DNA of 21,605 bases from a virus (taxonomy: Duplodnaviria; Heunggongvirae; Uroviricota; Caudoviricetes): IMG/VR virus record IMGVR_UViG_2529292836_000015; one strand, given 5' to 3'. A model generated the notes under the pieces. It did no database searches, was not told the DNA's origin, and was given only the letters and a program-made list of their open reading frames with translations. Below are positions 243 to 16,002 of the stretch, one piece after another (the stretch's first letter is position 1; each line of letters starts with the position of its first letter). The position numbers and the translations under genes are program-made.

Positions 243-272
243 GATGAGCAGAAAGGGGATATCACTGCTGGT

Positions 273-650
273 ATGGAGGCTATAACTCCAATTTGGCGTG
301 AATCTTTGCAGGAAGCACTCGACCGAATGACTATTTTTCGTGATAGTTCACCAAATACGGTTAGCTTAAATGTTAAAGTGTTGGCTCTTGACGTTCCTGC
401 TTTTGGTGTTTCAATGACAACTAAAGCAATTGCAAGGTATGAAATAATCAACCGTGCGAATGGTGATATTATATATACGCAGGATATTGAGTCTACCGGT
501 ACTGTTCCAGCCAGTTACGCATTCTACGGTATTGTTCGAGCACGCGAATCTGTTAATCGCGCGGTGCAAAACAACATAACGCAGTTCTTGCAAGCATTAG
601 AAAGTGTTGATCTTTCTCGTCCAATGTTTCCTGTTAGGGTAGCTAAATGA
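273..650 (+). CDS. hypothetical protein, possibly a 5'-truncated remnant of a gene interrupted by IS3
   Basis: 125-codon ORF in the track. Its frame is open upstream of the first ATG back to a TAG at 210..212, i.e. through the IS3 terminus. Its stop overlaps the start of the next gene (ATGA at 647..650). No family recognised. Confidence 0.45.
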   Translation: MEAITPIWRESLQEALDRMTIFRDSSPNTVSLNVKVLALDVPAFGVSMTTKAIARYEIINRANGDIIYTQDIESTGTVPASYAFYGIVRARESVNRAVQNNITQFLQALESVDLSRPMFPVRVAK

Positions 651-1099
651 AGCGATTATTCGTAATTGCTCCACTCTTAGTGTTGGTTGGATGCGCACAA
701 AATATATCGCCAAATAATTATTCTGTTGGCTCTGTGGGCATGGTTAATCGAACTATCGCTGGTACAGTTATTAGTGCCAGGGGGGTTGATATCAGTGGGA
801 CTTCCGCGTTAGGCGGGACTGCTGGGGCTGCCGTGGGGGCAACCGCTGGTTCTGCGCTTGGTGGGGGAGTTCGTTCTAATATCGTTGGTGCCGTTGGTGG
901 TGCAGTCATTGGTGGTATTGCCGGGGCAGCAATCGAATCTTCAGTAACAAAACAAACAGGCATGGAATATGTTGTCGAAACTGAGAATGGGAATTTAATG
1001 ACCATTGTTCAAGGCAAAGATCCGTTATTTACTCAAGGAAGTAAGGTCCTTGTTTTATACGGAAACCCTTCTCGCATAATAACAGACCCGCGTCACTAA
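647..1099 (+). CDS. outer-membrane lipoprotein, SlyB/PcP-like glycine-zipper family
   Basis: Signal peptide with lipobox (LLVLVG-C). Long Gly/Ala zipper stretch (GGTAGAAVGATAGSALGGGV...VGAVGGAVIGGIAGAAI). C-terminal segment (MEYVVETENGNLMTIVQGKDPLFTQGSKVLVLYGNPSRI) resembles the SlyB C-terminus as recalled. Confidence 0.7.
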   Translation: MKRLFVIAPLLVLVGCAQNISPNNYSVGSVGMVNRTIAGTVISARGVDISGTSALGGTAGAAVGATAGSALGGGVRSNIVGAVGGAVIGGIAGAAIESSVTKQTGMEYVVETENGNLMTIVQGKDPLFTQGSKVLVLYGNPSRIITDPRH

Positions 1100-1191
1100 C
1101 ATACCTTTTGATTTTGTAAAATCAATTCGTAATAATAAAGTCATCGGAGCTTGAACAACTCCGGTGACTTCTGCGCTAAACGGGGACGTTT

Positions 1192-3352: not shown

Positions 3353-4435
3353 TTAGAACTGATACACCAGACCTACAGCGACGATGTCGTCGGTATCAAT
3401 ACCAGCTGTTTTGGTAAACTTACTATCGTCAATTAAGTTGATTTTGTAATCAACAAAAGTGGACATGTTTTTATTAAAGTAGTAAGTAGCACCGACATCG
3501 ACATACTTGACTAAGTCTCGGTCACCATGAACACCAAGGTCTTTACCTTTTGACTGAAGGTAAGCAACAGATGGTCGCAGACCGAAGTCAAACTGATATT
3601 GTGCTACTGCTTCAAAGTTTTGTGCTTTGTTTGCAATATGGTTATTACCAAAAACGGTCATATTCTGAGTTTCAGAATATGTGGTAGCCAGATAGATATT
3701 GTTCGCATCATATTTCAGGCCTGCAGCCCATACTTCCGCATTTTTGCCGGAGGCATTGAATTTGCTCTTACCATAGGCGACCTGACCGTCAGTGCGATCT
3801 GATTTAGCATAGGTTGCACCCACGCCGAATCCTTCATACTCATAAGTAGTGGAGAAACCGAAACCATCACCATTGGCTTCAGTTACGTCAGTGCGGTCAT
3901 TTTTACCCTGATACTGAGCAGCAAAGTTCAGGCCATCGACCAGACCAAAGAAGTCGTTGTTACGATAGGTTGCAACACCAGTGGTGCGACCAGTCATGAA
4001 CACATCTGTTTGGGTCCAGGTATCGCCACCGAATTCTGGCAGAACGTCAGTCCACGCACCGATGTCGTATGCTACACCGTAGTTACGGCCGTAATCGATT
4101 GAGCCGTAGTCACCGAATTTCAGGCCTGCAAATGCAAGACGGGTTTTGTCTTTGGAGGAACCTTGAGATTCAGCGCGGTTGCCTTTGAATTCATATTCCC
4201 ACTGACCGAAACCAGTCAGTTGATCGTTGATTTGGGTTTCACCTTTGAAGCCAAGACGGGCATAAGTAGTATCACCATCATCTGCATCATTAGAGGAGAA
4301 GTAGTGCTTAGCATTAACTTTCCCGTACAGATCCAGCTTGTTACTGTCTTTATTATAAATTTCAGCTGCCTGAGCAGACATCGCCATCAGTACTGATGCA
4401 GCTACAGCAGAAATTGCCACTGTTAATTTTTTCAT
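3353..4435 (-). CDS. nmpC: phage-encoded general porin, NmpC/Lc/OmpD type, intact (360 aa)
   Basis: Signal peptide [23 protein letters not shown], beta-barrel porin sequence ending in the typical ...VGLVYQF. Matches the recalled NmpC/OmpD family. Located between Q and the holin, as in DLP12 and PA-2. Confidence 0.9.
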
Positions 4436-5932: not shown

Positions 5933-6466
5933 ATGAACGCAAAAATCAGATACGGCCTGTCGGCTGCCGTTCTGGCACTGATTGCCGTCGGTGCGCCTGC
6001 GCCTGATATTCTCGACCAGTTTCTGGATGAAAAAGAAGGTAACCACACAACGGCATACCGCGATGGTTCCGGCATCTGGACCATCTGTCGGGGTGCCACG
6101 GTGGTGGATGGAAAACCCGTTTTTCCCGGTATGAAACTGTCGAAGGAAAAATGCGACCAGGTTAACGCCATTGAACGGGATAAGGCGCTGGCATGGGTGG
6201 AGCGCAATATTAAAGTGCCACTGACCGAACCACAGAAAGCGGGTATCGCGTCATTTTGTCCCTATAACATTGGCCCCGGTAAGTGTTTCCCGTCGACGTT
6301 TTATAAGCGGCTGAATGCCGGTGATCGTAAAGGTGCATGCGAGGCGATTCGCTGGTGGATAAAAGATGGTGGGCGCGATTGCCGCATACGTTCAAATAAC
6401 TGCTATGGACAGGTTATTCGTCGTGACCAGGAAAGCGCATTAGCCTGTTGGGGGATAGAGCAGTGA
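5933..6466 (+). CDS. SAR endolysin (T4-lysozyme-like muramidase with N-terminal signal-anchor-release domain)
   Basis: N-terminal weakly hydrophobic Gly/Ala-rich segment [18 protein letters not shown], then catalytic E-x8-D-x5-T ([16 protein letters not shown]). Adjacent to the pinholin and Rz. Confidence 0.85.
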
Positions 6467-6924
6467 GCAGAGTCGCCGCGATTATTTATGCTTTGGTTAT
6501 CTGCATCATCGTCTGCCTGTCGTGGGCGGTCAATCATTACCGTGATAACGCCATCGCCTACAAAGAACAGCGTGATAAAAAAGTCAGTGAGCTGAAGCAG
6601 TCGATCGCCACCATCGCTGACATGCAGCAGCGTCAGCGTGATGTTGCTGCACTCGATGCAAAGTACTCGAGAGAATTAGCCAATGCGAAAGCTGAAAATG
6701 AAACTCTGCGCGCTGATGTTGCCGCTGGTCGTCGTCGGTTGCACATCAAAGCAGTCTGTCAGTCAGTGCGTGAAGCCACCACCGCCTCCGGCGTGGATAA
6801 TGCAACCAGCCCCCGACTGGCAGACACCGCTGAACGGGATTATTTCACCCTCAGAGAGAGGCTGATCACTATGCAAAAACAACTGGAAGGAACCCAGAAG
6901 TATATTAATGAGCAGTGCAGATAG
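6463..6924 (+). CDS. rzpD: Rz i-spanin (inner-membrane spanin subunit)
   Basis: GTG start overlaps the endolysin stop (GTGA). N-terminal [20 protein letters not shown] followed by coiled-coil. Matches recalled RzpD. Confidence 0.85.
6683..6865 (+). CDS. rzoD: Rz1 o-spanin lipoprotein, embedded in the +1 frame of Rz
   Basis: [20 protein letters not shown] lipobox, poly-Pro (PPPPP). Lies entirely inside Rz in another frame. Matches recalled RzoD. Confidence 0.8.
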
Positions 6925-6955
6925 AGCTGCCCATATCGATGGGCAACTCATGCAA

Positions 6956-7249
6956 TTATTGTGAGCAATACACACGCGCTTCCAGTGGAGTATAAATGCC
7001 TAAAGTAATAAAACCGAGAAATCCATTTACGAATGTTTGCTGGGTTTCTGTTTTAACAACATTTTCTGCGCCGCCACAAATTTTGGCTGCATCAACAGTT
7101 TTCTCCTGTCCAATTCCCGAAACGAAGAAATGATGGGTGATGGTTTCCTTTGGTGTTACTGCTGTCGGTTTGTTTCCAACAGTAAACGTCTGTTGAGCAC
7201 ATCCTGTAATAAGCATTGCCAGAGCGGCAGAAAACAACATTTTTTTCAT
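6956..7249 (-). CDS. bor: Bor lipoprotein (serum-resistance/Iss family, 97 aa)
   Basis: ATG at complement of 7247..7249 with AGGA SD. Translation MKKMLFSAALAMLITG-CAQQTFTV...GIYTPLEARVYCSQ matches recalled Bor/BorD. Confidence 0.9.
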   Translation of the reverse strand: MKKMLFSAALAMLITGCAQQTFTVGNKPTAVTPKETITHHFFVSGIGQEKTVDAAKICGGAENVVKTETQQTFVNGFLGFITLGIYTPLEARVYCSQ

Positions 7250-7429: not shown

Positions 7430-7552
7430 TTAAAAAGATAGAGGCGAGCCGGTCAGGTAGAAATGAATCAGGCTCAAAGTGAAGCGGAAAAGGTCTGTGG
7501 CACAAGCTGATGCAGCCATAATTACAGCCTGATGATTTGTGGAATGAAACAT
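7430..7552 (-). CDS. candidate 40-aa small protein with a perfect Shine-Dalgarno
   Basis: Minus strand reads TAAGGAGGT-TCAAC-ATG, then MFHSTNHQAVIMAASACATDLFRFTLSLIHFYLTGSPLSF, stop at complement of 7430..7432. No family recognised. Confidence 0.3.
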   Translation of the reverse strand: MFHSTNHQAVIMAASACATDLFRFTLSLIHFYLTGSPLSF

Positions 7553-7632
7553 GTTGAACCTCCTTAATTGATGTTATTCGAGTGATGAAGGCATTCTGTC
7601 CTTCTATAGTGTCCAGTAAATCAAACAGGAAA

Positions 7633-7654
7633 CTTGTCCAACGTGTTGGACAAG
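7633..7654. promoter_or_regulatory. perfect 10-bp inverted repeat CTTGTCCAAC-GT-GTTGGACAAG (candidate operator or packaging-related protein-binding site)
   Basis: Read directly from the sequence. Lies in the bor-HNH intergenic region, about 120 bp upstream of the HNH ATG and about 80 bp upstream of the minus-strand mini-ORF. Confidence 0.4.
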
Positions 7655-7774
7655 CCTCTCCATTAGTGAGTTGTATTGATCACAACTCTACAAAGAATTC
7701 ATTACTGGGTAGATGAAAATAGTTTCACTATGAATGGAGGAGGCTATGTCGGTGGCTTCTTCATTGGAGTACAT

Positions 7775-8125
7775 ATGCCCCCACGAATCCCACGCGCCTG
7801 CCGTAAGCGTGGATGTGCAGGTACAACCACAGACAGTTCTGGTTACTGCGATAAACATCGTGGCGAAGGATGGGTACAGCATCAACGCGGACTGAGCCGC
7901 CACCAGCGTGGCTATGGCTCGAAATGGGATGCCATACGTGCGCGCATACTGAAGCGTGATAATCATCTGTGTCAGAACTGCCTGCGCAATGGGAGAGCCG
8001 TTGAAGCCAGAACTGTGGACCACATCATTCCGAAAGCTCATGGTGGCACGGATGCAGACAGTAACCTGCAGAGTCTGTGCTGGCCCTGTCATAAAGCAAA
8101 AACAGCGCGCGAACGCATCAATTGA
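7775..8125 (+). CDS. HNH endonuclease (terminase-associated)
   Basis: ATG at 7775 with GGAG SD. Cys pairs (CRKRGC...C..C) and the HNH core (DHIIPKAHGGTDADSNLQSLCWPCH). Immediately upstream of terS/terL, as usual for HK97-type packaging modules. Confidence 0.8.
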   Translation: MPPRIPRACRKRGCAGTTTDSSGYCDKHRGEGWVQHQRGLSRHQRGYGSKWDAIRARILKRDNHLCQNCLRNGRAVEARTVDHIIPKAHGGTDADSNLQSLCWPCHKAKTARERIN

Positions 8126-8272
8126 TAACAGTTCCCATCTGTAGGGGAGGGGCAGGTCAAATCTCTGCAACCCTGGCTGCTCAGTACCGCCGCCTGACCT
8201 TTCCTCGCATCGCCGCAGGTTCGAAAACTTTTTTTTGGAATGTGATTAAATGATTGATAGGTAAAACCGATT

Positions 8273-8755
8273 ATGTCAGGACCCCTGAAAACCCCGCCAC
8301 GCCTGCATTTGATACGAGGCAACCCCTCAAAGCGCCCCGTTAAAGACCCAAAAAAAACCGCTAAAAAGGATGAAAAATGTCTCCCTAAAATTCCGCAACA
8401 TTTAGGGTCGCAGGGGAAGTACTGGTTCAGGCGAATGGCGGAAGAACTGAATGCGGAAGGGATCATTTCTCAGCTTGATGCGCGTGCACTCGAGTTACTG
8501 GTGGAAGCCTACACCGAATACCGGCATCACTGCGAAACACTCGATGTTGAGGGGTATACCTACCGCACGGAAACGCAGAACGGTGATGTGCTGATTAAGG
8601 CACACCCGGCTGCTGCGATGAAAGCGGATGCCTGGAAGCGGATCCGGGCGATGCTTGCAGAATTTGGTATGTCACCGGCAAGCCGGGCGAAAGTAAATAC
8701 CGCCGGACCGGATGATGTTGATCCGCTGGCGGAGCTTTTAAAAGCGAGAGACTGA
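8273..8755 (+). CDS. terminase small subunit (P27 family)
   Basis: 160-aa ORF directly upstream of and overlapping the large terminase (TGATG). Basic N-terminus. Family call by recollection. Confidence 0.7.
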   Translation: MSGPLKTPPRLHLIRGNPSKRPVKDPKKTAKKDEKCLPKIPQHLGSQGKYWFRRMAEELNAEGIISQLDARALELLVEAYTEYRHHCETLDVEGYTYRTETQNGDVLIKAHPAAAMKADAWKRIRAMLAEFGMSPASRAKVNTAGPDDVDPLAELLKARD

Positions 8756-10512
8756 TGGCAAAAGTGGCTGACGGGATCCGCTACGCCGAACGTGTTGTTG
8801 CAGGAGAAATTGTCGCTGGCGAATTTGTCCGTCTGGCCTGTCAGCGTTTTCTTGATGATCTGAAGTACGGCGAAGAGCGGGGGATTTATTTTAGTGAACC
8901 CCGTGCGCAGCACATCCTTAATTTCTACAAATTTGTGCCCCATGTGAAAGGGGCGCTGGCAGGCCAGCCCATTGAACTGATGGACTGGCATGTATTTATC
9001 CTCATTAATATTTTTGGTTTTGTCATTCCGCTGGTGAATGAAGAGACCGGGGAAGTTGTCATGCGCAGCGATGGCAGCGGACGCCCGGTGATGGGGCGCC
9101 GGTTCCGGACGGCGTACAACGAAGTCGCCCGTAAAAACGCAAAATCAACCCTGTCATCGGGTATCGGTCTGTATATGACGGGGGCAGATGGTGAAGGTGG
9201 TGCTGAGGTGTATTCAGCCGCAACCACGCGTGATCAGGCCAGAATCGTGTTTGAAGACGCCAAAAATATGGTCAGAAAAGCCCGGTCGACACTCGGGCGG
9301 TTGTTTGACTTCAACAAGCTGGCGATTTACCAGGAGCAGAGCGCATCAAAATTTGAACCGCTTTCCTCGGATGCAAACAACCTGGACGGTCTGAACATCC
9401 ACTGCGCCATTATTGATGAGCTGCATGCTCATAAAACCCGTGACGTGTGGGACGTTCTGGAAACGGCAACCGGTGCCCGTCTGCAGTCTCTGTTATTTGG
9501 CATCACCACGGCTGGCTTTAACAAGGAAGGGATTTGCTACGAGCAGCGCGATTACGCCATTAAGGTATTGCGAGGCTATAACAGCGACGTGGAGGGCGCG
9601 GTAAAAGACGACTCCTACTTTGCGATCATTTACACGCTCGATGAGGGAGATGATCCGTTTGATGAAACGGTCTGGCAGAAAGCGAATCCTGGCCTGGGCA
9701 TCTGTAAACGCTGGGATGATCTGCGTCGTCTGGCGAAAAAAGCGAAGGAGCAGGTCTCTGCGCGGGGGAATTTTTTTACCAAACACATGAATGTGGGGGT
9801 CACTGCCGAATCTGCCTGGATGGATATGATTAAGTGGGAGAAGTGCGAATACATTGCTCCACAACATGAGCTGAAAACATATCCCATGTGGGTCGGCGTA
9901 GACCTTGCTCATAAGATTGATATCTGTGCGGCGGCAAAACTCTGGCGAACCGATAACGGACATGTTCATGCTGATTTTAAATTCTGGCTTCCGGAAGGAC
10001 GGCTGGAGCGATGCTCGCGGCAGCAGGCAGAACTTTACCGGAAGTGGGCGGAGATGGATAAGCTCATCCTGACGGATGGTGATGTTATCGATCATGCTCA
10101 GATAAAAAGTGACTTACTGGAATGGATTGGCGGTGAAAACCTCAGGGAACTGGGATTTGACCCGTGGAGCGCAATGCAGTTCAGCCTGGCACTGGCTGAA
10201 GAAGGGATACCGCTGGTGGAGGTTCCGCAGACGGTCCGCAATCTGTCAGAGGCCATGAAGGAAACGGAATCACTGGTTTATGCCGGGCGTTTCCATCACA
10301 GCAATCATCCGGTCATGAACTGGATGATGTCTAACGTTACGGTAAAACCGGACAAAAACGACAACATCTTCCCGAATAAATCCACGCCTGAAGCCAAAAT
10401 CGACGGCCCTGTTGCACTTTTTACGGCCATGAGCCGCTTTCTGGTAAATGGCGGGGGCGTGAATGACTTTCTGTCCACGCTTGATCCTGATGAGGACCTG
10501 TTAATTCTGTGA
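8755..10512 (+). CDS. terminase large subunit (ATPase/nuclease)
   Basis: 585-aa ORF with P-loop region RRFRTAYNEVARKNAKST, Walker B-like HCAIIDELH, and a C-terminal nuclease region. Sits between terS and portal. Confidence 0.85.
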   Translation: MAKVADGIRYAERVVAGEIVAGEFVRLACQRFLDDLKYGEERGIYFSEPRAQHILNFYKFVPHVKGALAGQPIELMDWHVFILINIFGFVIPLVNEETGEVVMRSDGSGRPVMGRRFRTAYNEVARKNAKSTLSSGIGLYMTGADGEGGAEVYSAATTRDQARIVFEDAKNMVRKARSTLGRLFDFNKLAIYQEQSASKFEPLSSDANNLDGLNIHCAIIDELHAHKTRDVWDVLETATGARLQSLLFGITTAGFNKEGICYEQRDYAIKVLRGYNSDVEGAVKDDSYFAIIYTLDEGDDPFDETVWQKANPGLGICKRWDDLRRLAKKAKEQVSARGNFFTKHMNVGVTAESAWMDMIKWEKCEYIAPQHELKTYPMWVGVDLAHKIDICAAAKLWRTDNGHVHADFKFWLPEGRLERCSRQQAELYRKWAEMDKLILTDGDVIDHAQIKSDLLEWIGGENLRELGFDPWSAMQFSLALAEEGIPLVEVPQTVRNLSEAMKETESLVYAGRFHHSNHPVMNWMMSNVTVKPDKNDNIFPNKSTPEAKIDGPVALFTAMSRFLVNGGGVNDFLSTLDPDEDLLIL

Positions 10513-14112: not shown

Positions 14113-14451
14113 ATGCAGGCGGGCAGATTACGTGATCGCGTAATTATTCTGAATGTCACCACCGCCCGCTCTCCGTCAGGGCATCCGGTGGAGACGGTGA
14201 CGGAGGGAGCTACCGTATGGGCAGAAGTTAAGGGTATCAGCGGGAGGGAGATAATCTCAGGCGGAGCAGAAACCGCTCAGGCTACGGTCAGAGTCTGGAT
14301 GAGATTCCGGCGCGATGTGACAGCGACTTCACGTCTGAAAGTGCTGACCGGTGCATTTAAAGGGGCCATTCTGGGTATAGAAGGTCCACCAATACCGGAT
14401 GCACGCGCTACCCGGCTTGAAATACTCTGCAGCCTGAAGGGGAATGTGTGA
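14113..14451 (+). CDS. head closure / head-tail joining protein
   Basis: 112-aa ORF with AGGAGGA SD, in the conserved position. Confidence 0.65.
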   Translation: MQAGRLRDRVIILNVTTARSPSGHPVETVTEGATVWAEVKGISGREIISGGAETAQATVRVWMRFRRDVTATSRLKVLTGAFKGAILGIEGPPIPDARATRLEILCSLKGNV

Positions 14452-14897
14452 TGGATTTCAGTCTTGATTTTTCCGGCCTGGCGGATATTGCACGGGATTT
14501 GGAGACGCTCAGCAGGGCAGAAAACAATAAGGTTCTGCGCGATGCCACCCGTGCCGGTGCTGAAGTTATGCGGGATGCAGTTGTTGAACGTGCGCCGGAG
14601 CGAACCGGGAAACTGAAGAAAAATGTGGTTGTTCTCACTCAGCGTTCAAAGCGTCGGGGGGAAATTATCTCGGGTGTCCACATTCGCGGACGGAACCTGC
14701 GAACCGGAAACAGTGATAACAGCATGAAAGCCAGCGATCCCCGAAATGCATTTTACTGGCGCTTTGTGGAGCTGGGAACGATAAACATGCCCGCGCATCC
14801 ATTCATTCGCCCGGCTTTCGATACGACAGAGGAGCTGGCGGCGCAGGTTGCCATACAGCGAATGAATCAGGCTATTGATGAGGTCTTAAGTAAATGA
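14448..14897 (+). CDS. tail component protein (HK97 gp10-like)
   Basis: 149-aa ORF. Start (GTG 14448 or ATG 14451) overlaps the upstream stop. Conserved order. Confidence 0.65.
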   Translation: MMDFSLDFSGLADIARDLETLSRAENNKVLRDATRAGAEVMRDAVVERAPERTGKLKKNVVVLTQRSKRRGEIISGVHIRGRNLRTGNSDNSMKASDPRNAFYWRFVELGTINMPAHPFIRPAFDTTEELAAQVAIQRMNQAIDEVLSK

Positions 14898-15238
14898 GGG
14901 AGGCCACACTGTATTCCCTGTTGTCTCAGCTGGCCGGAGGACAGGTTTATCCTTATGTGGTCCCGCTGACGGAGGGAAAGCCTGCGGTATCTCCGCCGTG
15001 GCTGGTGTTTTCTGTGGTGTCTGACACGGCATCTGATGTGCTTGATGGGCAGGCTGAATCCAGAATTACCGTGCAGATCGATGTCTGGGCGACAGTACCT
15101 GATGACGCAGATAATATTCGTGAGCAGGCGCTTGATGCGGTAAGGAAACTGGCACCCTCCGTTATTTCTAAAACGCAGGGTTATGATCCTGATTCCCGTC
15201 TGAGCAGAGCCACGCTTGAATTTCAGGTAATAGCCTGA
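14894..15238 (+). CDS. tail completion / tail terminator protein (U-like)
   Basis: 114-aa ORF overlapping the upstream stop (ATGA), immediately before the major tail gene. Confidence 0.6.
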   Translation: MREATLYSLLSQLAGGQVYPYVVPLTEGKPAVSPPWLVFSVVSDTASDVLDGQAESRITVQIDVWATVPDDADNIREQALDAVRKLAPSVISKTQGYDPDSRLSRATLEFQVIA

Positions 15239-15255
15239 GGTCGTTAATGATTTTA

Positions 15256-15285
15256 CCCACCCGCCGCTGGCGGGTTTTTTATTTT
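15256..15285 (+). terminator. intrinsic terminator-like hairpin upstream of the major tail gene
   Basis: CCCGCC-GCT-GGCGGG stem followed by TTTTTTATTTT. Confidence 0.5.
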
Positions 15286-15297
15286 CAGGAGACGAGT

Positions 15298-16002
15298 ATG
15301 TCCTCTAATTTTGAGCGTTCGCAACTGACGAAAATTATGATTTCGTCTGCACCGGTAACAGCAGAAACCCTGGATTCTGCCAGCTATCTTGGCCTGAGCT
15401 GTACAATCAAAGAAGTGCAGTTTACCGCTGGACAAAAGCAGGATATTGATGTCACCACGCTGTGTTCTGTTGAGCAGGAAAATATTAACGGTCTTGGTGC
15501 CGCGTCAGAGATTTCCATGTCAGGCAACTTTTACCTCAATGCTGCCCAGAATGCGTTGCGCAGTGCCTATGACAATGACACCACGTATGGCTTTAAAGTT
15601 ATTTTTCCGTCAGGCAACGGATTTACCTTTATGGCAGAAGTGCGTCAGCATACCTGGTCTGCAGGAACCAATGGTGTTGTGGCTGTAACGTTTTCCCTGC
15701 GTCTGAAAGGCAAACCTGTGCTGACGACAGCTTCGCTGAAAGTGAAGGTTGATTTAAAAAGCACGCTGCGGGTTGCTTCCGGAGCGAAACTTGAAATGGC
15801 GGTTGAGGCTGCGGGTGGTGTGCCGCCTTATTCTTATGTCTGGAAGAAAGGTGGTTCTCCTGTTTCCGGACAGACGGCGGCAACGTTCAGTAAGGCATCA
15901 GCATCATCCGGTGATGCGGGTGCGTATACCTGCGAGATTTCTGATTCAGCGAGCCCGGTTAACAAAGTGACCTCCACTTCCTGCACTGTAACCGTCAGTT
16001 AA
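15298..16002 (+). CDS. major tail tube protein (V-like) with C-terminal Ig-like domain
   Basis: ATG at 15298 preceded by CAGGAGACGAG. N-terminal tube domain, then a C-terminal ~90 aa Ig-like segment (LKVKVDLKSTLRVASGAKLEMAVEAAGGVPPYSYVWKKGG...CTVTVS). Confidence 0.8.
   Translation: MSSNFERSQLTKIMISSAPVTAETLDSASYLGLSCTIKEVQFTAGQKQDIDVTTLCSVEQENINGLGAASEISMSGNFYLNAAQNALRSAYDNDTTYGFKVIFPSGNGFTFMAEVRQHTWSAGTNGVVAVTFSLRLKGKPVLTTASLKVKVDLKSTLRVASGAKLEMAVEAAGGVPPYSYVWKKGGSPVSGQTAATFSKASASSGDAGAYTCEISDSASPVNKVTSTSCTVTVS

Follow-up and report, generated by a model that had tools for sequence, protein, structure and literature searches.

The part that SlyB plays in outer-membrane (OM) stress protection has recently been explained. 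Small OM lipoproteins are also carried as prophage cargo, as with Cor and Llp, which mask the FhuA receptor, and Bor, the product of a lipoprotein cargo gene of phage lambda. As described by Janssens et al. (2024), SlyB forms membrane rings around OM proteins and lipopolysaccharide (LPS); PDB entry 7ojf is a SlyB13•BamA complex. TraT, the surface-exclusion protein of the F plasmid, consists of an LptE-like core and two transmembrane helices and forms an exclusion ring (PMC12658005). Here, we analyze a two-gene lipoprotein operon at positions 243–1099 of a 21,605-nucleotide stretch of Caudoviricetes DNA (IMG/VR record IMGVR_UViG_2529292836_000015), a stretch that we refer to as the window. The second gene, ORF2, encodes a relative of SlyB. 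The first, ORF1, is truncated by an IS3 element in the window and in its intact form encodes a second lipoprotein, with a predicted LptE/PqiC-type fold.

This locus shares features with each of these systems and departs from each in its organization. ORF2 and SlyB (150 and 155 amino acids, respectively) have the same order of lipobox, N-terminal strand, glycine-zipper hairpin and C-terminal β domain. Unlike SlyB, however, ORF2 always follows a coupled partner gene, moves horizontally, is carried by prophages and does not lie next to slyA, as slyB does; in Escherichia coli K-12, the annotation shows slyB as a lone gene without a neighbor on its strand. The two genes resemble cor, llp and bor in specifying small OM lipoproteins carried as prophage cargo but differ in constituting a two-protein system. 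The elements that TraT combines on one chain are distributed over two chains here, with no significant sequence link between TraT and the pair (Pfam TraT, PF05818, E = 0.55; Foldseek, E = 0.16), and we treat this likeness as an analogy, not as family membership. Our searches of the literature on SlyB, prophages and superinfection exclusion returned no description of the pair, the partner family, the cassette or its carriage by prophages; one paper on enterohemorrhagic E. coli phages cites the SlyB study and does not discuss the gene pair. That ORF2 belongs to the SlyB family is ordinary. What went undescribed in the literature searched is a dedicated partner family of predicted LptE fold, the tight two-gene cassette and its recurrent carriage by prophages.

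Two coupled genes move as a bounded cassette

The window is a 100% match, over all queried stretches, to positions 2750722–2772326 of E. coli strain 203740 (NZ_CP025913.1), which was obtained from human stool in Mali, and both ORFs are annotated as coding sequences in that RefSeq record. ORF1 (273–650) and ORF2 (647–1099) lie on the + strand as a pair, as an earlier, sequence-only reading of the window had described. The ATG of ORF2 (647–649) overlaps the TGA of ORF1 (648–650) in an ATGA start/stop overlap (647–650), implying that the two genes are likely to be translationally coupled. Hundreds of homologs of both proteins, 45–87% identical, occur in three proteobacterial classes, indicating that these are not chance ORFs.

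Scanning one genome per bacterial species with an alignment of the ORF1 family as seed yielded 69 loci, with hosts in the Xanthomonadales, Burkholderiales, Rhodospirillales, Sphingomonadales, Micavibrio, Enterobacterales and other groups. An ORF2 homolog lies immediately downstream on the same strand in 64 of these loci, and the pair is conserved across α-, β- and γ-Proteobacteria. Among the 63 pairs with assignable starts, the genes overlap by 4 nucleotides (nt) in 49 cases and by 1 nt in eight, with the rest 2–26 nt apart. The two proteins also diverge in step, as pairwise identities among ORF1 and ORF2 homologs are strongly correlated (r = 0.875; Mantel p = 0.001; 48 distinct pairs). Nucleotide similarity between loci typically extends from ~14 nt before the first start codon to the second stop codon (L009–L077 compared with L080–L127, approximately positions 5987–7015 of each locus), and these sharp edges indicate that the pair moves as a bounded cassette of ~1.03 kb. 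Around the 69 species loci, we found no conserved third gene or functional neighborhood; the 130 nearest flanking proteins represent 108 Pfam families, each occurring no more than five times. The cassette is practically absent from plasmids, with one weak match among 72,556.

Most ORF1 proteins that have an ORF2 partner share a C-terminal signature. Of 64 distinct ORF1 proteins with a partner, 62 have a P[ML][FSY]P tail, compared with none of 12 solo ORF1 homologs (Fisher p = 3e-12, not corrected for phylogeny), and this PMFP tail is a candidate docking motif for ORF2. In E. coli, a lipoprotein is directed to the OM when its +2 residue is other than Asp. Asp is absent from this position in both proteins, so both would be OM lipoproteins by this rule.

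ORF2 is a SlyB paralog

ORF2 (647–1099, + strand) is intact and encodes a 150-residue lipoprotein that begins MKRLFVIAPLLVLVGC, followed by AQ, with an L-V-G-C lipobox and Ala at +2; Cys16 is invariant across 74 homologs. The proposed resemblance to SlyB is borne out at the level of both sequence and predicted structure. In a phmmer search of the PDB, ORF2 residues 2–149 match residues 3–155 of SlyB (7ojf_A; E = 1e-14), and BLASTP finds 33% identity to K-12 SlyB over the full length (E = 1e-12). An AlphaFold2 (AF2) model of ORF2 (pLDDT 71.5) has helices at residues 55–70 and 75–101 and strands at residues 36–49 and 103–146, and 7ojf_A is its sole significant Foldseek match in the PDB (E = 1.7e-8; TM scores 0.66/0.71). 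The model predicts a two-helix glycine-zipper hairpin (residues 55–101) and a β domain (residues 36–49 and 103–146); the Gly/Ala-rich segment of the sequence spans residues 51–97, with the C-terminal domain after it.

Profile comparisons place ORF2 among glycine-zipper lipoproteins, although not through the Pfam models that the sequence-only reading had suggested, which gave sub-threshold matches only. Scores fell below the gathering thresholds for Rick_17kDa_Anti (PF05433; 21.1 versus 24.2 bits), Gly-zipper_Omp (PF13488; 17.8 versus 25 bits) and Gly-zipper_YMGG (PF13441; 10.6 versus 28.9 bits); some close ORF2 homologs have precomputed PF13488 or PF05433 matches. PHROG 13877 matches ORF2 over its full length, and the ORF2 profile is linked to the glycine-zipper lipoprotein YfgH with 96.6% probability. 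Homologs that are 63–75% identical occur in Pantoea, Salmonella, Edaphovirga, Pusillimonas, Rugosibacter and many metagenomes, and relatives of ORF2 already carry the label SlyB in annotations from the Joint Genome Institute. These comparisons identify ORF2 as a SlyB paralog that belongs to a distinct subfamily, whose members share 65–75% identity with each other across classes but only ~33% with SlyB.

Two further likenesses were considered. The yfgH–yfgI gene pair was rejected as a parallel zipper-lipoprotein operon, as YfgI is unrelated (0.6% probability) and rich in charged residues. ORF2 also gave a non-significant match (E = 0.068) to the lambda tail tip assembly protein I (PDB 8iyk_I) that covers the Gly/Ala-rich segment and the following domain and is probably compositional. 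At one locus (L119), an ORF1 homolog lies directly upstream of a gpI-like gene.

Intact ORF1 has a predicted LptE/PqiC-type fold

An uninterrupted allele of the operon is found in PhiR30_1 (PV340558.1), an isolated temperate phage whose genome is 99.7% identical to window positions 243–1150. Its first gene (561 bp) encodes a 186-residue protein that begins MKKIILLAMIIGSLTGC and has an L-T-G-C lipobox, so that comparison with an IS3-free relative, as had been proposed, recovers the intact upstream gene. An exhaustive search assembled the ORF1 family into 465 clusters at 50% identity. The sequence-only reading had recognized no family for ORF1, and neither the truncated nor the full-length protein matches any family in Pfam and NCBIfam scans; the full-length sequence also has no meaningful match in the PDB. 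The intact protein nevertheless has both a conserved ORF2 partner and a recognizable predicted fold. The AF2 model of full-length ORF1, built on 107 diverse sequences, is of high quality (pLDDT 94.6; pTM 0.88), with a β-α-β-β-β-α topology. In fold comparisons, this model scored 13.2 with the DUF330 protein XCC0632, 10.3 with both HpaA and PelC, 9.9 with LptE, 9.6 with PqiC, 9.1 with CsgG, 7.2 with LpoB and 7.0 with the TraT core. Among BFVD viral structures, a Foldseek search found no informative relative, and TM scores were low. On the basis of the model, intact ORF1 is predicted to be a second OM lipoprotein with an LptE/PqiC/PelC/CsgG-type fold.

Resemblance to these proteins is confined to the fold. 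Sequence identity to LptE, PqiC (DUF330), PelC, CsgG and HpaA is 7–14%, and ORF1 has no Pfam or NCBIfam match to any of these five families; sequence profiles thus place it in neither the LptE nor the DUF330/PqiC family. The neighbors of the species loci include no MCE, Lpt, Pel or curli genes, and ORF1 lacks the MCE/Pqi linkage of PqiC proteins. The fold is characteristic of lipoproteins located beneath or within OM assemblies, and two of the proteins that share it, LptE and PqiC, act on LPS or lipids.

A link to YajG is more tentative. Aligning the ORF1 family profile with E. coli YajG by hhalign gave 82% probability (E = 1e-5; 116 columns), which fits the recent PGAP label ‘YajG family lipoprotein’ for ORF1 without establishing membership; NF008637, the NCBIfam model for YajG, matches ORF1 at E = 0.21 over residues 1–61 only, the signal-peptide region. 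YajG is of similar length and also has a lipobox. In the K-12 genome, ampG directly follows yajG on the same strand, and no gene for a SlyB paralog adjoins yajG. ORF1 could be a distant YajG relative, in keeping with the label. YajG and SlyB are both among the lipoproteins recovered along with LptDE on purification (PMC12065857).

Family signatures of ORF1 include PPLNF directly after the lipid anchor, an invariant Tyr117 and NRxVQNNIxxFLQ in the last helix. The (K/R)PMFP tail at the C terminus is short and conserved, has no regular secondary structure in the model and is its lowest-confidence part, although confidence there is still moderate (block means 89 and 68). Database names for the family are hypothetical protein, lipoprotein, YajG family lipoprotein and UDP-N-acetylglucosamine acyltransferase. 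The last of these is in wide use and is attached to the intact gene at L001 6848–7408 and to homologs P0001, P0003, P0021 and P0041 in NCBI, UniRef and the PhiR30_1 record. We reject an acyltransferase assignment, as ORF1 has no hexapeptide-repeat Pfam match and its model is a small α/β lipoprotein domain; the name looks like an annotation error carried from record to record.

IS3 truncates the first gene in the window

The left end of an IS3 element occupies positions 1–242 (− strand) of the window and contains the terminal inverted repeat and the start of the transposase gene orfA; the identical record, NZ_CP025913.1, annotates this segment as an IS3 family transposase. The sequence-only reading placed IS3 beside the operon. 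Its end does adjoin the operon at base 242, but the element interrupts the operon and removes the promoter-proximal part. Base 242 is the last of the IS3 terminus (...TGGGTAAGATCA), base 243 is the first outside the element, and GAT at positions 243–245 (+ strand) is the right-hand copy of a 3-bp target-site duplication. The uninterrupted sequence at the insertion site is CGTCCAGATGAGCAG. With a slash marking the junction, the left IS3 boundary in NZ_CP025913.1 reads ...CGTCCAGAT/TGATCC... (...CCAGAT/TGATCC) and the right boundary reads ...AAGATCA/GATGAGCAG. Comparison of the intact sequence with the two junctions shows that the 1.26-kb IS3 inserted after codon 51 and duplicated GAT.

What remains of the first gene is a 3′ remnant (243–650, + strand) that comprises codons 52–186 of the 186-codon lipoprotein gene. 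The annotated 125-residue coding sequence (273–650) starts from an ATG within the gene and includes neither a signal peptide nor a lipobox; its frame is open back to base 213, within IS3, and PHROG 12521 matches it only at profile positions 54–178 of 178, in line with the suspicion that this gene had been decapitated. A promoter-like site oriented toward the operon (GTGATA-16-TATAAT) lies ~30 bp before the ATG of intact ORF1, in an AT-rich region past IS3. This site is the sole one of that orientation in the upstream region, and a scan found no promoter-like site between base 242 and the start of ORF2 (647). Because the signal peptide, lipobox and native promoter have been lost beyond IS3, the first gene appears to be dead. 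The window thus contains, as judged from its sequence, a pseudogene of ORF1 followed by an intact ORF2 that has been separated from its promoter, and this copy of the operon is probably non-functional. ORF2 itself differs from the PhiR30_1 allele at two residues, with no frameshift or stop on reading.

This disruption is exceptional among carriers. The cassette locus occurs in 280 of 5426 complete E. coli genomes, always on the chromosome, and is thus not an E. coli core gene. The insertion site is uninterrupted in 273 E. coli carrier genomes, and the identical IS3 junction is present in six of the 5426. IS-free alleles are found in PhiR30_1 and in many ST410-type genomes. K-12 DLP12 also has an IS3 next to the cargo slot but at a different site, in renD (L129 1778–3035), and this second element suggests that the region is a recurrent IS3 target.

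The cassette occupies several prophage cargo slots

The prophage is lambdoid and DLP12-like, and the window covers its right half. As the sequence-only reading recognized, the lipoprotein pair is prophage cargo in the ren–ninB region, where it sits between ren and the ylcH-like ORF and ybcN. In K-12 DLP12, the same slot is filled by emrE–ylcJ–ybcK–ybcL–ybcM. GC content at the cassette island in E. coli is 32–41%, compared with ~52% in the flanks. The cassette fills this slot in two lambdoid prophages with different immunity regions. In strain WCHEC020031 (L130), the prophage has a different immunity region and a lipocalin gene after Q.

Carriage extends to other positions in viral genomes. IMG/VR contains 48 loci with an ORF1-family gene, of which 35 have the pair and 13 have ORF1 homologs alone; genes in these contexts were confirmed with PHROGs. 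Several lie in siphovirus tail modules. A pair at L101 6001–7013 has the tape-measure gene on one side and a minor tail protein gene on the other, with I-like and J-like tail genes downstream. A solo ORF1 homolog at L119 5968–6549 falls between a lambda-K-like minor tail gene and the gene for an I-like tail assembly protein, a J-like ORF lying downstream, and solo homologs at L115 5986–6549 and L126 6001–6534 are immediately upstream of the tape-measure gene. In L126, a second, unrelated lipoprotein gene (167 residues; PHROG 8179) follows the ORF1 homolog. Elsewhere, a pair is near a cI-like repressor gene, with one ORF between (L104), and a solo homolog is near a Q-like antiterminator gene (L114). 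The receptor-masking lipoprotein genes cor and llp likewise adjoin tail or receptor-binding genes. Independent capture at several cargo slots, including the neighborhood of tail-tip genes, is the strongest contextual hint that the family has a phage-relevant function.

Among isolated phages, PhiR30_1 is the sole carrier of the family in 50,697 records, and it has the intact pair. Carriage in E. coli amounts to ~5% of complete genomes and includes human, animal, food and sewage isolates. Carriers of an intact cassette among genomes H10–H26 include the WCHEC series, AMA1167, YD786 and UK_Dog_Liverpool, which are of clinical, animal and sewage origin.

Models for cassette function

We propose that the cassette is mobile prophage cargo whose two OM lipoproteins form a complex that shields OM proteins in lysogens, a proposal for which we regard the balance as even. 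It builds on the identities, folds, coupling, co-inheritance and prophage contexts of the two proteins, from which we infer complex formation, ring formation and an exclusion phenotype. In this model, both lipoproteins would be sorted to the OM. The SlyB-like protein would insert its hairpin in the OM and, as SlyB does, oligomerize as rings around OM proteins and LPS. The LptE-fold partner would then dock on the periplasmic face of the ring assembly, probably via its PMFP tail, and the resulting two-component complex would shield or immobilize OM proteins. Receptor shielding, as in superinfection or surface exclusion, is the most likely benefit, with hardening of the envelope a close second; the sequence-only reading had raised both possibilities.

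Several observations weigh against such a shield. SlyB rings enclose OM proteins laterally, and it is hard to see how this arrangement would block adsorption. Solo ORF1 homologs in prophages indicate that ORF1 can work without ORF2, and the correlation between the PMFP tail and a partner is confounded by phylogeny, as the solo homologs belong to more divergent clades. Confidence in the ORF2 model is only moderate (pLDDT 71.5). Sequence searches also provide no link to known exclusion proteins: PHROG Cor (PHROG 1119) matches at E = 0.26 over residues 1–19, which are signal peptide only, the PHROG matches include no Llp family, and neither protein matches any family in the PADLOC defense models. 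Finally, many loci are in non-phage accessory regions; for example, the Klebsiella oxytoca pair adjoins umuDC/SRAP and the Bordetella pair adjoins toxin–antitoxin genes. The native role of the cassette may therefore be in envelope physiology and not be anti-phage.

An alternative explanation is that the cassette serves envelope fitness only, as a SlyB-type stress device that would benefit the host cell by stabilizing OM proteins and LPS in nanodomains when cations are depleted or when antimicrobial peptides or detergent are present; the partner would modulate contacts with lipids or LPS, and prophages would carry the pair as generic lysogen-fitness cargo similar to bor, with no specific anti-phage role. 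We consider it unlikely, but a serious contender. The tail-module placement of ORF1-family genes, by tape-measure and tail-tip genes, speaks against it, as such placement is more typical of receptor-masking genes such as cor and llp than of general fitness genes. E. coli, moreover, already has slyB, and no PhoP-type regulation was identified, with no convincing PhoP box seen by eye in the upstream region. Still, SlyB and ORF2 are homologs, a large number of loci have no visible prophage around them, LptE and PqiC, which share the fold of ORF1, act on LPS or lipids, and YfgH, a related glycine-zipper lipoprotein, is reported to be an OM-stabilizing factor (preprint 10.64898/2025.12.22.696046). 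A more specialized variant of our proposal, which we think quite improbable, takes the analogy with TraT further, with the cassette as a two-component OM exclusion device in which a ring surrounds a β-barrel (BamA, LptD or a porin) and the LptE-fold partner, tethered by its PMFP tail, caps or plugs the periplasmic face. Such a device would act after adsorption, for example by blocking passage of the tape measure or DNA, or would block the entry of bacteriocins or conjugative DNA, and solo ORF1 homologs in tail modules would be a minimal version that uses host SlyB.

The solo homologs, found at 13 of the 48 viral loci and at 5 of the 69 genome loci, could instead mean that the two lipoproteins are independent and merely share an operon, one being a phage-relevant exclusion or masking protein and the other a passenger; K-12 SlyB is, after all, a single gene. 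We find this very doubtful, given that the start/stop overlap is kept in 57 of 63 pairs, that the two proteins diverge in such close correlation, that the cassette has exact boundaries and that the C-terminal motif is limited to partnered ORF1 proteins. Two small, overlapping phage genes for envelope proteins, one product being an OM lipoprotein, also recall a spanin or a toxin–immunity pair, readings that we reject as scarcely credible on the basis of topology and context. Both products are predicted OM lipoproteins, whereas in a spanin pair one partner is an inner-membrane protein; the prophage has lysis genes elsewhere, for a holin, a lysozyme and an Rz-type protein; the cassette resides in the early/nin region or within tail modules, and it is also common outside phage contexts; and Pfam and PADLOC scans gave no match to a toxin or immunity family. 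A separate question is whether the copy in the window is anything other than a pseudogenized remnant, with gene 1 killed and gene 2 silenced by IS3. That it is only a remnant seems to us rather probable, given the loss of the signal peptide, lipobox and promoter-like site past IS3, the absence of another promoter-like site before ORF2, the decay of the prophage elsewhere (IS1 in gene O, the IS66 insertion and the internal stop in the portal gene) and the rarity of the insertion, found in only 6 of 280 carriers. However, the ORF2 frame is intact and has its own weak Shine–Dalgarno-like sequence (AGGG), and read-through from pR at induction, or from IS3, could transcribe it.

If the two lipoproteins do form an OM complex that shields receptors, the cassette would represent a new mechanism of phage-encoded exclusion, and ORF1 would be the first dedicated partner protein in SlyB biology. 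The TraT-like arrangement, if correct, would define a new class of prophage-encoded superinfection exclusion across the Proteobacteria. With carriage in ~5% of E. coli genomes, an effect on phage susceptibility or envelope permeability could be of practical consequence. The disruption of the copy in the window lowers the importance of this particular locus.

Neighboring features of the prophage

Downstream of ORF2, the gene order is ylcH-like ORF, ybcN, ninE, ybcO, rusA, ylcG and quuD, followed by an ompC/nmpC-type porin gene, lysis genes, an IS66 element and then head and tail genes. Between ORF2 and the ylcH-like ORF, a strongly structured stretch (1095–1200, + strand) contains three hairpins, with a predicted RNA folding energy of −36.7 kcal/mol (z = −6.5 relative to shuffled sequences). 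It has no T-run and was not flagged by a simple terminator scan; these hairpins may mark the 3′ boundary of the cassette or a nin-region terminator.

The porin gene (3353–4435, − strand), directly downstream of the antiterminator gene quuD, is intact and encodes 360 residues, whereas its K-12 DLP12 counterpart, nmpC, is split by IS5. It is a second OM cargo gene of the same prophage. The IS66 element (tnpA/B/C; 7528–10143) follows a KilA-N gene, the portal gene (14322–15923) has an internal stop and a pseudogene annotation, and, outside the window, IS1 splits the replication gene O (L002 4155–4852). With IS3, these amount to four disruptions that make an inducible phage unlikely, and the prophage is decaying. 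Just past IS3, also outside the window and inside the same low-GC island as the lipoprotein operon, a 63-residue hydrophobic ORF annotated as a hypothetical protein (L001 6400–6591, − strand) diverges from the operon.

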